Origin: Escherichia phage vB_EcoM_ESCO9 | Sequence record: OM386654.1 | DNA length: 64,000 bases | Strand: one strand, 5' to 3' | In this document: positions 1 to 16,500 of the stretch, piece after piece | Layout of the letters: each line of letters opens with the position of its first letter | How positions within the stretch are numbered: the stretch's first letter is position 1 | Notes under the pieces: model-generated | What the model was told of the DNA's origin: nothing | Seen by the model: only the letters and a program-made list of their open reading frames with translations | Databases searched by the model: none | Made by a program: the position numbers and the translations under genes

Positions 1-350
1 TCTAAAATACGTTCAGACATAGCTTCAATGATTGCTGATCGTGCTTTCACCTTAGTTTCTGCTTCTTTAATTTTCTTTTCAAGTTCTGCAATGTACTTCA
101 GTAGTGCACTAACAACATCTGGAGTATTTTCTTGATCATCTTGGGAAATTTTTACCAAAGAAGAAGCTGCTCTGCAACGGACTTTAGGTTCTACGTAGCC
201 AAAAGTCATATTTTCAGAAGAAGATTGTTGTGAAAACCAGTGTTTGTTCGAAAACACAGGTTCATCTTCAAACCAGAACACATCTCCAGTGATATCACGA
301 GCCATGAAATTTGCATTGTCTGGGACTTCGTAACGATGACCTTCAAACAT
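1..350 (-). CDS. hypothetical protein, partial (C-terminus beyond window start)
   Basis: Open minus-strand frame to the window edge; candidate ATG at 350 with AAAGAG RBS. Confidence 0.4.
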   Translation of the reverse strand, partial: MFEGHRYEVPDNANFMARDITGDVFWFEDEPVFSNKHWFSQQSSSENMTFGYVEPKVRCRAASSLVKISQDDQENTPDVVSALLKYIAELEKKIKEAETKVKARSAIIEAMSERIL

Positions 351-2921: not shown

Positions 2922-3098
2922 TTATTGTTCAAGAGTAAAAGGAATGATCTCACCATAGCTGTATTGCATGGCATTCACTTCTGCTTCTGCACGTTGTGCT
3001 AGTTCTAATGTTGCACAGATTTTATAAGGTACAGTGCTGCATTGGCTCCAGCCTGGGGTATTCTTTGTTACTAAGTACACAGTAGTTTCTTTATTCAT
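2922..3098 (-). CDS. small hypothetical protein (58 aa), approximate
   Basis: ORF below track cutoff; AGGAGAGG RBS. Confidence 0.3.
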   Translation of the reverse strand: MNKETTVYLVTKNTPGWSQCSTVPYKICATLELAQRAEAEVNAMQYSYGEIIPFTLEQ

Positions 3099-3552
3099 AA
3101 CTTTCCTCTCCTAGTTCATCATACCATTTCAAAGCGTCTTTTGGAAGCATACCAAAATCTTCTTTCAGTTCTTTTTCAATCTCTTCTTTCATTTCATTCA
3201 ACACTTGCAGTTGGCGTATTTTCTTCCGTAACAAAGTTTCCCGCTCATTGTTGCTTGGTGTTACTTCATTTGCTGCCATCATCACATATCCGGTCGGGGA
3301 GCAAGGAAGATAATCATCAATATTTTCTAAAGCATAACGAAAATTGGAATCCAAGAAGTTTACATGCACTTGATCACATCCAAACAACTTGGCACGAAAT
3401 ACTTCATAACGAGTTTCAGATAAGATATGTCGCACACAGACAATACCTACATCATTTTGCACTGCACAGGTTACATCCAACAAACTTGAGTGTTCTTTGA
3501 CATAATCTGCAACACATTGCACATGTGCTTCCAGTATAGATAGTTGTCTCAT
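3091..3552 (-). CDS. hypothetical protein (first gene of left operon)
   Basis: 153 aa ORF; GGGGAGG RBS. Confidence 0.6.
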   Translation of the reverse strand: MRQLSILEAHVQCVADYVKEHSSLLDVTCAVQNDVGIVCVRHILSETRYEVFRAKLFGCDQVHVNFLDSNFRYALENIDDYLPCSPTGYVMMAANEVTPSNNERETLLRKKIRQLQVLNEMKEEIEKELKEDFGMLPKDALKWYDELGEESYE

Positions 3553-3961
3553 TTTCTACCTCCCCATAATGCTAACATTTTATTGAAAAATGGAAACGCG
3601 TCGTGCGCGGTATGCAAACCACTATACAGACATTTTTATTCAATGCAAGCATTATTTGCATCTTCGATTCTGTCTTTCACCCACTGCAATAATGGAGGAA
3701 TTAGTATAGGTATTCCCTATCAATTATTCTATATATACCTATTATTTTTAACACACCCCTTTGTACATAATATAGACAAATAAATATCTATGCCACAAAA
3801 ATTTTCCGGTATACCCGATTTATTTCGACACACCCCCTTTTCATAAGCGTAAAGTCAATAATATCAATAACTTGCCGCAAAATACTGCTCGCTTGCGAGA
3901 GGTGCTTAACGCGATTTTCAGCGCCCCCGATTTCTGCCGACCGTCCCCCTCAAATATCAAT

Positions 3962-3980
3962 GAGAATTATTATCATTTGC
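3962..3980. promoter_or_regulatory. Fur-box-like site
   Basis: gagaattattatcatttgc versus Fur consensus GATAATGATAATCATTATC (about 14 of 19). Confidence 0.35.
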
Positions 3981-4156
3981 ATTATCATTCAATGACTTAT
4001 AAGACTTTTGATTATTTTCTGAGCAAGAAAGGCACTACTCACAACAAAACAGATAAATTCTAAGTAAATCAATGGCTTGGCATTTCTAAACATCTATATA
4101 CACCTTGCCAAATGAAATGATCCTGCGTGAAATAGTGCTACCCGTGGAAGATAGCT

Positions 4157-4175
4157 GATAATGATTATCATTTGC
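4157..4175. promoter_or_regulatory. Fur-box-like site (best match)
   Basis: gataatgattatcatttgc matches Fur consensus at 16 of 19 positions. Confidence 0.5.
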
Positions 4176-4512
4176 ATATTTTCTATACTATAAAACACCC
4201 TAAAAATCAAGATAATTCTAATTTATTGCGCTTTTAAGAAAGTAGGCTCAACAAATGATAGGCTATATGGGGGGCAATAGTATGAAAAACCATCTATTCA
4301 TATATAAATAATTTTGCGCAATAGTGTTAATATTTTTCTTGACAAGAAAGATTTCTTTGTGTTCACATAGCGCCCCCTGGAAGGTGGCGCATTATGATCA
4401 TCAGCATCATTATTCACGATGTTTATTATTGTATAGCTTATTATTTAGCTTATATTATAGCCAATGTTCTAAACATTAGCTAATAATAACGCACCGCAAC
4501 AATGTAAGGGAT

Positions 4513-4556
4513 ACAATATACAATTGTATATTGTTGCGCTTGCAGTTGTTGCAAGC
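4513..4556. repeat. two adjacent perfect palindromes
   Basis: acaatatacaattgtatattgt (22 bp perfect inverted repeat) followed by gcttgca-gttgt-tgcaagc. Confidence 0.6.
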
Positions 4557-4695
4557 TACATAAGCACAAATAATGACTATCGGTGATGGTTATTATGTGG
4601 GGTGTGTAGTTGCGTTATTATTAGCCGCCTATGTGTCCGGCATAGGCTGCTAATGATACGCTTGCGAATTATATTTCTTGTTATAGTTATTGTAT

Positions 4696-5050
4696 GGAAT
4701 GATTACCACATGAAATGGTTACTGTATGCAATGATTACTGTATGAAATGATTATCTAAGTAATAGATAGGAAGGTAAAGATTAGACCATAAATAGATAGG
4801 ATGTGAATTATTTAGTAATGTTACTAACAATTTAATAGTTACTTTGTGCAACAATTCGATAGATTATAATTGTAGTTTTAAGGGTTAGATAGATTATATT
4901 TAGCTTAGTAATGATTTATATTAGTTATTATTGTTTAATACAATGTTATCAATGAGATAGTAACAGTAAGTTATAAATAAAGGTGAGATAATTAGTTTTA
5001 ATTTAGTTAGATAACTTATTATTTTATAGGTTAGATGGTCTTAAGTTAAG
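4696..5050. repeat. AT-rich iteron-like short direct repeats
   Basis: Repeated words aatgattac, tgtatg(a/c)aat, aatagatagg, ggttagat(a/g)g. Confidence 0.45.
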
Positions 5051-5122
5051 AATGATTCTCATTATTGCATTATGCAATTTATTGCATAAATAATCAGCTA
5101 TAAATAAGAATGATTATCATTT
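5051..5122. promoter_or_regulatory. Fur-box-like sites plus palindrome
   Basis: gaatgattctcattattgc and agaatgattatcattt; palindrome ttgcattatgcaa between them. Confidence 0.4.
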
Positions 5123-5320
5123 AAGAGGAAAGACAAGAAAAAGGCTGTTTTTGCCAGGTAATTACATGAAGAAATTAAAAATAAGCGGTCTAAAACACGT
5201 TGTAAGCGCCTTATGATCTTCATGGTATGGTTGTTCATCTGCTCCTTGATTAGCTCGATACCGCGATCTATTCACTTTTTTCGGTGAACGTTTTTGATAG
5301 GTAAAAGCTATCATCTTTAT

Positions 5321-5353
5321 TTAGGTAAAAAGAAAGGGCGCAATAAGCGCCCT
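5321..5353 (-). terminator. intrinsic terminator after gene 5369..5752
   Basis: Stem agggcgc/gcgccct followed by T-run on the minus strand. Confidence 0.55.
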
Positions 5354-5368
5354 TGTTTGAAATGTTAT

Positions 5369-5752
5369 TTACTGATAAGCTGGATCGTTTGTTATATCAA
5401 TCCAATGAGATAAATTAATTTTATTTTTTGCTTTCATTTTCTCGATCAAACGTTCGGCTAATGTTTCTGAACGAATATAAACATGCTCGCTAAAATCTTG
5501 CCCCGTTTCTTCGTCGATCATTTCTCTATATTCAACCTTGCCGATAAACGCATGATTCAGCGCATAAGTTTTACCCGTGTACCAGTTATGTAAATGGATC
5601 TCGCATTTATAATCATCGCTATACCCTTCGGTTGTTCTAACTTCAACCAAGTCACCTTTAAACACTGATAAGCACCACATAGGATCACGATCTACAGCGC
5701 CGTTAAAATCTTTACCGTTTACAGTAGCCGCCAGGTTGATGATATTGCTCAT
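5369..5752 (-). CDS. hypothetical early protein
   Basis: 127 aa ORF; GAGG RBS. Confidence 0.6.
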   Translation of the reverse strand: MSNIINLAATVNGKDFNGAVDRDPMWCLSVFKGDLVEVRTTEGYSDDYKCEIHLHNWYTGKTYALNHAFIGKVEYREMIDEETGQDFSEHVYIRSETLAERLIEKMKAKNKINLSHWIDITNDPAYQ

Positions 5753-5827: not shown

Positions 5828-6058
5828 TTATTTTTCAAAAAATTTTTCTACTGTGATATTCTTCCCAGTGGGATTAGCTACTTTCAAAATTTTATCATGT
5901 ACTGGACGCCCAAAAGAATAAGATCCGTATACAGTAAACCAATAATCACCGTCAGGCTGTACTATCACCGCTGCATAGGGTACGCCTTTTTCGTTATTGC
6001 TGACAGAATAGATCACATTGCCGTTAATAGCTTCAGCGCGTTTAATTTGTTCGATCAT
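5828..6058 (-). CDS. hypothetical early protein
   Basis: 76 aa ORF downstream of promoter-hairpin cassette. Confidence 0.55.
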   Translation of the reverse strand: MIEQIKRAEAINGNVIYSVSNNEKGVPYAAVIVQPDGDYWFTVYGSYSFGRPVHDKILKVANPTGKNITVEKFFEK

Positions 6059-9008: not shown

Positions 9009-9332
9009 TCAATAATCTTTAAGATTTTCTACATTTACAAAAGTGCGTTTATTTTCTAAGTTTTCGCCGTACCATTGCCCCATGTTGATTTCTGCGGTGC
9101 GCAACCAGGACATGCCGCGTTGTATCTTTTTACTTGCAATCTCGATCCGGCTTTTGCATAGTGCTTTCGCTTGCAATGTAAAAACACTATTGCCCTGTAA
9201 TGCTTCCAGGTCATCATGTGCAAGGCGATACTCTTTAAAGCCTGATTCTATCATTTCAATAGCATCAAGTAAACGCGCGCGATGATAGAAAAAATCAGAG
9301 TTATCCAAATAAACACCGATCACAGATTTCAT
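9009..9332 (-). CDS. hypothetical early protein
   Basis: Start moved to ATG at 9332 (MKSVIGVY...) with AAAAGGGTAAAATT RBS. Confidence 0.5.
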   Translation of the reverse strand: MKSVIGVYLDNSDFFYHRARLLDAIEMIESGFKEYRLAHDDLEALQGNSVFTLQAKALCKSRIEIASKKIQRGMSWLRTAEINMGQWYGENLENKRTFVNVENLKDY

Positions 9333-9432
9333 AATTTTACCCTTTTGTTTGCGGCCTTTGCCGTTTTCAAGATATAGTTTAAAGCATAACAAAAAATTGT
9401 CAAGCCTTTAAAGCGTACAACTATAAAACCTA

Positions 9433-9552
9433 TTAAAACACAATGTATAACAACATGGCTATAGTAGCAATACAACATAAAGCCATGCTTGTTTTCCTTC
9501 CTTCCTCGTATGCTGGATTTATTACGCTATATTGTACGGGAATAATTTTCAT
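9433..9552 (-). CDS. small hydrophobic peptide (39 aa), approximate
   Basis: MKIIPVQYSVINPAYEEGRKTSMALCCIATIAMLLYIVF; AAGGAAACAGC RBS. Confidence 0.3.
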   Translation of the reverse strand: MKIIPVQYSVINPAYEEGRKTSMALCCIATIAMLLYIVF

Positions 9553-15901: not shown

Positions 15902-15930
15902 TTGACAAGCCCAGGGATCGGGCTTATACT
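15902..15930 (+). promoter_or_regulatory. near-consensus sigma70-type promoter with no obvious downstream ORF
   Basis: TTGACA, 17 nt, TATACT. Confidence 0.5.
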
Positions 15931-16160
15931 GTTTTACATACAGAAGAGGAAACGCCACCCCCACGGCGTAAAGGCGGGGCTAACATACCAGGGGGCACTG
16001 GTTGGAAGGTTGATCGCCGGTAGCTCGTCTAAAATAAATTTGTAAAGAAATGTAAAGATAAAAATAATCGCTTGCTTTTGTTGTTGGTTATGCTATTCTT
16101 ATTGTATGGCGAGGGGACACGGGAGCGCGAGACAAACACCGCCCCTGCGCGTTATTCTCT

Positions 16161-16275
16161 AAATGAGAAAATTCTCATTTGCTAATGATTCTCATTCTCT
16201 TACTGAGAATGATTATCACTTACATAGTTAAATGATAATGATTCTCATTTACAAACGAAAATGATTCTCATTAAC
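16161..16275. promoter_or_regulatory. cluster of about five Fur-box-like sites
   Basis: aaatgagaaaattctcattt palindrome, gagaatgattatcacttac, aaatgataatgattctcattt, aaaatgattctcattaac. Confidence 0.5.
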
Positions 16276-16289
16276 ACACCTATAAAAAC

Positions 16290-16500
16290 ACGAAATTGAA
16301 CTTTTCATTTTTGATTTTTCTACGGAAAAAGGCAAAAAAACTTTAAATAAACTGGGGAATTTTTAAAAAATTGAAGTTTTCATTTTCAAAATCTGGATAG
16401 AAATACATACAAAAACTTTAAATAATTTTGACCAAACTTGAACTTTTCATTTTCAAAATTTGTACCCAAAAATCTGTAAAAACTTTAAATAATTTTGTAC
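16290..16500. repeat. three tandem ~67 bp direct repeats
   Basis: Each unit has TTGAAcTTTTCATTTTcaaaat ... aaaaactttaaataatttt. Confidence 0.6.

Follow-up and report, generated by a model that had tools for sequence, protein, structure and literature searches.

Positions 3553-5368 of the 64,000-nucleotide stretch of Escherichia phage vB_EcoM_ESCO9 analysed here (sequence record OM386654.1; hereafter the window) form a 1.8-kb gene-free gap which, judged by homology, is the genome-end or concatemer-junction region of a phi92-like phage. We consider it probable that the gap acts as a control region for the ends of the linear genome of this myophage, which the assembly shows as a circle. It can now be mapped as a set of parts: two putative cut sites with a shared motif, a covarying, strand-specific element that folds as a three-way junction, and Fur-consensus sites near the ends. 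An initial annotation, made from the letters of the sequence, had proposed an origin of replication, a packaging site or a regulatory hub for this gap; the packaging-site option is the one supported, a phi92-type direct terminal repeat (DTR) having both of its boundaries inside it. The features that the annotation listed (a Fur box with weaker copies, palindromes, hairpins and repeats) were all found in place. What it missed was the terminal repeat, the unity of the palindromes and of a hairpin at 4626-4646 as one element, and a second Fur-like array at 16161-16275. The locus as a whole is of a known kind, a DTR terminus region, with apparently undescribed components that are evolutionarily well supported.

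Megablast of the gap matched 128 phage records, nearly all of them from two genera of the subfamily Stephanstirmvirinae, Justusliebigvirus (phi92-like) and Phapecoctavirus; the closest match was Escherichia phage SD2 (95.6%). The window represents a linear-genome Justusliebigvirus coliphage whose assembly was closed into a circle. In the annotated phi92 genome (NC_023693), two identical copies of the terminal repeat occupy positions 1..343 (PHI92_DTR-L) and 148270..148612 (PHI92_DTR-R). By blastn, phi92 position 1 falls on window position 4248 (minus strand) and the last phi92 base on 3907, so that 3907-4248 is the lone copy of the repeat, collapsed in the circularly closed assembly; over the first 1251 bp of phi92, which open with DTR-L, identity with window 3000-4248 is 97.6%. 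Both flanking genes lie on the minus strand, and they are the equivalents of the first left-end gene of phi92, gp001, and of its last right-end gene, gp248; from their adjacency in the window it follows that the phi92 reference genome was opened inside the gap. The conventional orientation of the phage is the minus strand of the window, in which the order runs from gp248 through its terminator (5354-5334), 1.1 kb of non-coding DNA (5368-4249), the DTR (4248-3907) and a further 354 bp (3906-3553) to gp001. By homology, the left physical end is position 4248, reading leftward, the right physical end is 3907, and the virion ends fall at 3906|3907 and 4248|4249.

Other records agree with this placement. 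Those of phages vB_vPM_PD06, PHB05 and VEcB start or stop exactly at the equivalent of 4248, and the "right end direct terminal repeat" annotated in Salmonella phage UAB_1 stops at the equivalent of 3907. A 342-bp DTR was reported for phage BME3 by PhageTerm (PMC12210895), and Stephanstirmvirinae genomes are stated in a 2025 paper to end in direct terminal repeats (PMC12695924). The 342-bp terminal duplication of the BME3 record falls on window 3908-4248, while the DTR-L annotated there is ~73 bp off. In that record (PP239276), positions 1-788 are repeated near its end and 1-342 are repeated again at the very end; given these redundancies and the offset of DTR-L, its ends look misassembled. 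The window repeat is therefore a member of the phi92/Stephanstirmvirinae type, with the same boundaries, the same length (342/343 bp) and the same flanking genes. This identity of the terminus is already known from phi92 and BME3; the database records and articles examined cover the repeat only, and the boundary motif, the Fur-like sites and the folded element are not in them.

An alignment of both boundaries covered 13 sequences, drawn from Justusliebigvirus, Phapecoctavirus, Citrobacter phage Tr1 and IMGVR14, a lineage from IMG/VR, where a pattern scan yielded just four extra loci. The same motif, RGTGCT|YAAC, stands in direct orientation at both DTR boundaries and is kept in 13/13 sequences and at least four lineages, within flanking sequence that is otherwise ~70% identical or unalignable. 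The aligned consensus reads ...AGRRGTGCT|TAACGCGA... at the left boundary and ...TTTAAGAGAAGGTGCT|CAACA... at the right one. From the spacing of the two motifs, the predicted length of the DTR is 343 bp in Justusliebigvirus, 329-331 bp in Phapecoctavirus, 321 bp in Tr1 and 344 bp in IMGVR14. Such a direct repeat at both virion ends would most simply be a terminase cut or nick signal, and one common to both DTR ends appears to be undescribed. In Phapecoctavirus and Tr1, the right boundary is followed, 6-8 nt outside the repeat, by a covarying hairpin (5-bp stem, 3-nt loop) whose stem sequence depends on the lineage; the window counterpart is degenerate (a weak ATAGgCTAT).

To the right of the repeat lies the second main component. 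The best-conserved non-coding sequence in common with Phapecoctavirus is a ~124-bp block at 4534-4657, found by distant blastn and extended by a short upstream match (4479-4508) to a conserved span of 4479-4657. A consensus fold was derived by RNAalifold from an alignment of 19 non-identical sequences (A2), and pairs were counted in a covariance-model alignment of 20 sequences (A4). The element is maintained by evolution as a three-way-junction fold, and on one strand only. Its 51 base pairs, in six helices, are standard in 100% of 969 cells from 19 sequences, and 14 of them have changed on both sides; the covariation score of 0.220 compares with 0.095 in shuffled controls (0/500 reach the observed value) and at most 0.055 in slid controls. 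A MAFFT alignment, which is not fitted to the structure, agrees, with 99.9% of cells paired and 13 pairs changed on both sides. In the closing helix P1, AACGCA/TGCGTT is replaced by AAGCCA/TGGCTT in Phapecoctavirus and by ACCGCA/TGCGGT in Tr1, and phage arall alone carries an A-U to U-A swap; in the 3' hairpin P5, GCCTATG/CATAGGC becomes CGCTACG/CGTAGCG. Folded individually, 16/16 sequences adopt the same architecture (P1, junction, P2, P3/P4 and P5) at -73 to -83 kcal/mol.

The choice of strand is equally marked. The plus strand has a minimum free energy of -83.6 kcal/mol (z -8.1; z -8.4 with DNA parameters) as against -60.7 kcal/mol (z -5.7) for the minus strand, and in the MAFFT alignment it holds 49 G·T cells versus one A·C cell, which means that the minus strand would pair in 842 of 891 cells compared with 890 for the plus strand. 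Compensatory changes joined to this asymmetry are the signature of a structured single-strand element, either a non-coding RNA (ncRNA) or a single-stranded DNA (ssDNA) signal. The selected plus strand is the one whose 5' end lies at the right physical terminus.

Both palindromes singled out in the initial annotation are present and take their place in, or beside, this fold. The 22-bp perfect palindrome (4513-4534) is marginal by itself, a palindrome of 22 bp being reached in 4/200 shuffles; it is the apical part of P2 and occurs in Justusliebigvirus only. The loop at its apex varies (AATT in the window, CAT in most phages, TCTC in phi92), as would be expected of a hairpin and not of a protein site on duplex DNA. 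The second palindrome is a 7-bp inverted repeat at 4537-4555. As a native pairing this short hairpin is disfavoured: it competes with the long P2, which carries a compensatory C-G to U-A change, and it costs 4-13 kcal/mol more in 16/16 sequences. The hairpin that had been placed at about 4626-4646 corresponds to 4627-4647 and is P5, and the one at about 4371-4391 is likewise present in the spacer that separates the DTR from the element.

The folded element is apparently undescribed. Rfam 15 gave no match in the window at gathering thresholds, the packaging RNA (pRNA) of phage phi29 included, and a permissive search of 3500-5400 returned just chance-level matches (E >=0.46); no description of it was found in the literature searched. 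Scanned with the covariance model (R1), neither the window nor phage PD211, represented by its complete genome, yielded a second copy. The model did find a full-length match in Vequintavirus pangalan, in the matching orientation, at 27 bits (E 9e-5 in 226 kb and 1e-6 in 2.6 kb). This match, at 9320-9499 on the minus strand (L027 coordinates), lies inside a 2.5-kb gene-free region; its fold (-81.6 kcal/mol, z -10.6) has two internal hairpins within a long closing helix, plus a hairpin on the 3' side. The counterpart in phage rV5 (~1500-1740, L028 coordinates) has an insertion in the apical loop of the long hairpin.

What follows the element is conserved in kind more than in sequence. Directly after P5, every lineage has 2-5 direct repeats that contain AATGATT and are spaced by 15-16 bp, variable in number even within a genus: four 16-bp copies in the window, 2-4 across other Justusliebigvirus, and 2-3 copies at the corresponding position in Phapecoctavirus, Tr1 and rV5-like phages. 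This variation in copy number is the reason why identity within the genus falls to 48% at 4701-4750. All lineages then have ~250-300 bp of AT-rich DNA, strongly G/T-skewed on the plus strand; the composition and skew of the window spacer (4763-5047) are kept between genera and its sequence is not. The AT-rich short direct repeats reported by the initial annotation are these two features, the four tandem repeats at 4683-4762 and the degenerate repeats of 24% GC beyond them. After the spacer come TTGCAT/ATGCAA inverted repeats with a Fur-like site; in the window they lie at 5065-5087, flanked by sites C and D.

These and other Fur-like sites make up the third component. Sites were scored by mismatches to the Fur 19-mer GATAATGATAATCATTATC rather than with a full weight matrix, and the footprinted ent/fep operators of MG1655 were scored likewise. 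The enterobactin-cluster operators show 3 (fepD-entS), 4 (fepB), 4 (entC) and 6 (fepA-fes) mismatches, so that on the same scale the phage sites are at least as consensus-like. The near-consensus box that had been noticed at 4157-4175 with 16/19 matches (site B) reaches 17/19 on the minus strand, and its weaker copies begin at 3962, 5048 and 5106 (sites A, C and D). Matches with at most three mismatches number five in the window versus 0.05 expected (~100-fold), and the core AATGANNNTCATT occurs six times versus 0.18 expected (~30-fold), always in one orientation. The common core of the sites is a 7-1-7 unit, TGAKAAT-N-ATTATCA. Around site A, matches overlap at 6-bp steps (3956, 3962 and 3968), and overlapping arrays at 3- or 6-bp steps have been described for Fur operators (Chen et al. 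2007, PMC2189734); both in mismatches and in these overlaps, then, the sites resemble footprinted E. coli operators. In the complete PD211 genome (149.5 kb), sites with at most three mismatches are confined to the same two non-coding regions, which indicates that the motif is not a general promoter element.

The placement of the sites is also conserved. From the positions of sites A and B, each physical DNA end has a Fur-like site 55-75 bp from its tip. The distance of site A (55-57 bp) is fixed in Justusliebigvirus, Phapecoctavirus and IMGVR14, and the site reaches 17/19 in phiWec188-like phages; at four mismatches or fewer, none was found at this place in Tr1 or ALITA. Site B is strong only in Justusliebigvirus, with a weaker homologue, TGAGAATGATTATTA, in Phapecoctavirus. 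In 12/13 sequences, representing all lineages except Tr1, a further site with at most four mismatches is found 656-810 bp beyond the right side of the DTR; Tr1 has a weaker GATAAT|ATTATC palindrome there. The boxes would be operators for a dimeric protein, for which the iron-bound Fur of the host (Fe-Fur) is the most parsimonious candidate.

The dimeric protein could instead be encoded by the phage, either an early repressor that switches off the early promoters or a small terminase subunit that positions cuts 55-75 bp away, and we regard this as a serious possibility that falls short of an even chance. Its appeal is that the consensus GAGAATGATTCTCATTTGCA exceeds the Fur core, with a C at +1, a TTGCA extension and six exact cores in the same orientation, and that sites A and B are symmetric, 55-75 bp inside the cut sites, in the manner of the terminase-binding sites by lambda cosN; phi92 gp005, moreover, is annotated as a predicted transcription regulator. 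The same sites nonetheless fit the E. coli Fur 19-mer at 15-17/19, with 6-bp phased overlaps typical of Fur arrays (PMC2189734), a terminase role does not account for those situated 0.8 kb and 12 kb away from the cuts, and a Pfam search detected no DNA-binding domain in the ten neighbouring open reading frames (ORFs).

The second array lies within a 0.8-kb non-coding region between the equivalents of phi92 gp223 and gp224. Next to it, at 16290-16500, are three ~60-bp direct repeats, each with TTGAAcTTTTCATTTT...AAAAACTTTAAATAA, which on the minus strand read ATTATTTAAAGTTTTT and are reminiscent of phage late or middle promoter motifs. This region could serve as a second regulatory or origin region. 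The GC-rich DNA at 15925-16165 near this array was considered as an ncRNA and rejected (z +0.5 and +0.9).

On the reading of the gap as a genome-end control region, a terminase complex would recognise concatemers at both GTGCT|YAAC motifs and cut or nick them there, and, as other DTR phages do, the phage would regenerate (duplicate) the repeat by synthesis. At the right end, the folded element, when single-stranded, would be a cis signal in replication or packaging, and its strand polarity suits two versions of this idea. In the ssDNA version, the 3' tail of the left end would invade the right-end repeat and prime leftward synthesis, the displaced strand would be the plus strand, and its fold, 230-400 nt inside the repeat, could serve as a priming or helicase-loading site from which a T7-like primase-helicase could support lagging-strand synthesis. 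In the RNA version, a transcript arising in or near the repeat would run inward and fold, and might then act as a primer or R-loop organiser by the AT-rich repeats, or as a packaging cofactor. The Fur-like sites would be bound by host Fe-Fur, with end protection, positioning of the terminase, control of the early promoter or titration as possible consequences. A bolder proposal holds that the 180-nt element is a cis-acting single-strand signal of a new class, either RNA or displaced ssDNA, that phi92- and rV5-like phages need for replication or packaging, and that host Fur is recruited 55-75 bp from each end and at the second array so that the phage reads, or by titration perturbs, the iron status of its host; taken in full, we consider it unlikely.

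Several points tell against the interpretation as a genome-end control region. The ends of this phage are placed by homology to mapped relatives, and the role proposed for the boundary motif is derived from its conservation alone. Standard T7-like end resection would expose the opposite strand, so that the ssDNA version needs a specific strand-invasion scenario. No mirror-image folded element was found to the left of the repeat (z 0.1 and -1.0), nor was a plus-strand sigma70 promoter consistently found upstream of the element, or a terminator after it, in the window, nepoznato and Tr1. The Fur-like strings of rV5-like phages are weaker, at five mismatches, and the Fur-like sites of the window overlap just weak sigma70-like hexamers, without enrichment of promoter matches. 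For the element, the lack of a promoter and terminator weakens the version in which it is an independent small RNA gene, which would have both on its structured strand, and this lack together with that of a mirror element leans slightly toward ssDNA or read-through RNA.

It is against these findings that the element must be weighed as a stand-alone ncRNA gene that merely lies near the terminus, encoding a regulatory or anti-defence RNA or a packaging RNA of the phi29 pRNA kind. G·U pairs make up ~9.5% of cells and three of them are invariant in alignment A4; a three-way junction closed by a helix of the 5' and 3' ends is a common RNA architecture, the RNA folding energy is as low as given above, and -10-like hexamers (TATAAT, TACAAT, TAGAAT) abut P1 in three lineages. 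Those hexamers, however, would start transcription within the 5' arm of P1, and to this are added the inconsistent promoters and terminators and the failure of Rfam, pRNA included, to match. Such a gene is conceivable in our view, with the balance somewhat against it.

We think it rather unlikely, on the same material, that 4249-5368 is a replication origin in which a transcript or displaced strand folds, the AATGATT repeats bind an initiator and the AT-rich spacer unwinds, as in transcription-activated origins such as the T7 primary origin and ColE1 RNA II; this proposal overlaps the genome-end control region and does not exclude it. AT-rich DNA, variable tandem repeats and a strand-specific fold are compatible with an origin. 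The DNA of 24% GC shows a local inversion of GC skew, and in every lineage the tandem repeats come straight after the folded element. The replication genes are T7-like, with a gp4-type primase-helicase and PolA, and the skew analysis of the rV5 authors failed to place an origin (both PMC3606486). Of the hallmarks of an iteron/DnaA-type origin, tandem iterons beside AT-rich DNA are present, but DnaA boxes (TTWTNCACA) are absent from 3553-5368, and the window as a whole holds 10 versus 11.3 expected. Repeat copy number, furthermore, varies from 2 to 4 within a genus, no initiator gene is adjacent (the early ORFs are without a Pfam match), and the other repeat-rich stretch of non-coding DNA, at 16.1-16.7 kb, is just as good a candidate. 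A mere AT-rich intergenic spacer or mRNA leader, with palindromes and Fur-like strings arising from composition, has next to no chance of being correct: sigma70-like promoter matches are at their expected number (14 vs 14.9) and the 22-bp palindrome by itself is reached in 2% of shuffles, but the mapping of the DTR to 3907-4248, the boundary motif, the enrichment of Fur consensus and core, the motif positions kept across genera and the covariation of the folded element already refute it.

The genome-end control region can be compared with several known systems. T7-type concatemer junctions combine a terminal repeat with adjacent processing signals and hairpin intermediates. The window likewise has a short non-coding terminal repeat, site-specific ends, and accessory sequences and structure just outside the repeat on the right-end side, in a phage with a T7-like replisome of primase-helicase and PolA. 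It differs in that this phage is without a phage RNA polymerase or class II pause site, has a 180-nt three-way junction where T7 has a simple hairpin, and bears the same putative cut motif at both boundaries. Like phi29 pRNA, the element is structured, of ~120-180 nt, within a few hundred bp of a terminus and built as a three-way junction closed by a 5'/3' helix; unlike pRNA, with which it has no sequence or Rfam similarity, it belongs to a DTR myophage with a terminase rather than to a protein-primed podophage, and it is known from DNA sequence. Signals of the G4-type ssi, plasmid sso and M13 minus-strand origin kinds are orientation-specific base-paired folds of 100-200 nt on one DNA strand only. 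The element of the window is similarly orientation-specific and extensively paired on one strand; ssi and sso, in contrast, act in replicons with obligatory ssDNA intermediates, and the window element has been seen as sequence alone.

The phage sites resemble the E. coli Fur box (7-1-7 and hexamer models; PMC2189734) in matching it at 15-17/19, in their 6-1-6 core (AATGAT-N-ATCATT) and in forming arrays whose members overlap at 6-bp steps. Unlike E. coli operators, they occur in a virulent phage, both at fixed distances from its ends and in another non-coding region, with an extra conserved TTGCA flank, and their binding is a prediction. The closest parallel outside the subfamily is in rV5, where the corresponding region was labelled "non-coding" and an origin was not located by skew analysis (Kropinski et al. 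2013, PMC3606486). The rV5-like box is also a large gene-free region in which a folded element (long closing helix, two internal hairpins and 3' hairpin) is followed by AATGATT repeats and weak Fur-like strings; it differs in its weak similarity (27 bits to the covariance model) and in the five mismatches of its Fur-like sites, and the GTGCT|YAAC motif was not found in the rV5 box. The features of the region are collected in Table 1.

Table 1. Features of the genome-end region, with the second Fur-like array (window positions).
Feature	Position	Strand	Evidence or remarks
gp001 (phi92 equivalent)	3091-3552	-	first left-end gene
Early promoter region of the left-end operon (gp001 onward)	3553-3906	-	sequence, conservation
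Best promoter candidate	-35 TTGCAT 3648-3643, 16-nt spacer, -10 TATAGT 3626-3621	-	~70 nt upstream of gp001 start codon
Weaker promoter candidates	3751-3723 and 3796-3767	-	
Left DTR boundary motif GAGAGGTGCT|TAAC	3897-3910		direct repeat of right boundary motif
Direct terminal repeat, single collapsed copy	3907-4248 (342 bp)	-	homology to phi92 DTR
Fur-like site A	3962-3980		15/19 (4 mismatches); 55-57 bp in from the left DTR boundary (right physical end)
Fur-like site B GATAATGATTATCATTTGC	4157-4175		16/19 on +, 17/19 on - (2 mismatches); 73 bp in from the right DTR boundary (left physical end)
Right DTR boundary motif AAGAAAGTAGGCT|CAAC	4236-4252		consensus AGAGAAGGTGCT|CAAC
Spacer, DTR to folded element	4249-4475		holds Justusliebigvirus-specific GC hairpin 4371-4391; fold z only -2.1
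Structured single-strand element, three-way junction, ~180 nt	4476-4657	+	covariation, folding energy
Helix P1 (14-15-bp closing helix)	4479-4493/4611-4625		
Helix P2	4496-4500/4548-4552 plus 4503-4508/4539-4544		long hairpin
P2 apical extension	4513-4521/4526-4534		the 22-bp palindrome of the initial annotation
Helix P3	4554-4562/4603-4611 and 4565-4568/4596-4599		with P4, a long bipartite hairpin
Helix P4	4571-4581/4585-4595		
3' hairpin P5	4627-4634/4640-4647		
Four 16-bp tandem repeats containing AATGATT	4683-4762	+	sequence; annotated only as repeat_region in muut and arall
AT-rich spacer (~24% GC) with degenerate TAGATAG-type repeats	4763-5047		composition
Fur-like site C	5048-5066		4 mismatches
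Fur-like site D	5106-5124		5 mismatches; core AATGATTATCATT at 5109-5121
Conserved block	5224-5333	n/a	~80% conserved between genera; no reading frame common to lineages; beside gp248 terminator (downstream)
gp248 intrinsic terminator	5334-5354	-	8-bp stem, 6 GC pairs, then TCTTTTT; annotated in Paula and phAPEC8
gp248 (phi92 equivalent)	5369-5752	-	last right-end gene; Phage_30_8 family (Pfam)
Second Fur-like array, five sites	16161-16275		16181 (3 mismatches), 16205 (4), 16234 (3), 16257 (3)

On the left-end side, a block at 3604-3690 is 92-94% identical between Justusliebigvirus and Phapecoctavirus, above the level of the adjacent genes, and precedes different first genes, extra ORFs being inserted in Paula, muut and ALITA. 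Standing ahead of different first genes, it behaves like a portable early-promoter cassette, and from its sequence it is expected to be the early promoter of the left end, of the sigma70 type used by host RNA polymerase. With conserved sigma70-like early promoter(s) at 3621-3648 and upstream, the regulatory-hub option of the initial annotation is plausible. Three ACACACCCC repeats lie in the 3553-3906 region. Direct repeats ending in ACACACCCC(T)TT are found at 3737-3761, 3814-3838 and 3926-3950, 77 and 112 bp apart and thus across the left DTR boundary, and a similar AACACACC follows Fur-like sites at 4193 (4190-4197) and 16275 (16272-16280).

The earlier statement that the gap holds no convincing ORF also holds good. 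The longest ORFs in 3553-5368 have at most 79 aa, conservation between genera was seen for none of them, and the curated phi92 record is free of annotated ORFs there; small conserved ORFs considered at 5060-5368 were rejected, their reading frames differing between genera, and a tRNA/tmRNA search gave no match. The conserved block downstream of gp248 may belong to a 3' untranslated region or be a further regulatory element. Among ten flanking early and late ORFs, Pfam recognised only gp248 (Phage_30_8), and no Fur-like, DNA-binding or initiator domain was found. As a marker for the region in more distant phages gp248 was unhelpful, since it is a widespread T4 gp30.8-like protein. Automated annotation (e.g. 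of Antha, KMB37, ZYD and cardinal) places 8-10 "hypothetical proteins" across 3553-5368, which are almost certainly spurious. The 76-aa product of gp247 (5828-6058) is 90-95% identical in Vequintavirus genomes and only ~69% in Phapecoctavirus, suggestive of recent exchange between subfamilies near the genome end. Records of the MG0656xx series ("Campylobacter phage A145, C3, D1...", labelled Campylobacter jejuni) are near-identical to E. coli Justusliebigvirus/Vequintavirus genomes and are probably mislabelled or contaminant assemblies.

The phi92-, phAPEC8- and rV5-like myophages are among the coliphages of broadest host range and are common in therapy cocktails and reference collections; in the literature searched, no replication origin, packaging signal or early regulatory logic is named for them. 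For annotation, the finding matters in that pipelines call up to ten spurious proteins here and that the opening point of many records is arbitrary. A specialist would be surprised both by a covarying element common to two subfamilies of these coliphages and by Fur-consensus sites whose distances from the ends are fixed. Should the folded element be needed in cis, it would bear on the choice of genome opening points, on synthetic or rebooted genomes and on which non-coding DNA cannot be deleted. If Fur binds the sites near the ends, a virulent phage would be wiring its genome ends or its early programme to the iron sensing of its host.

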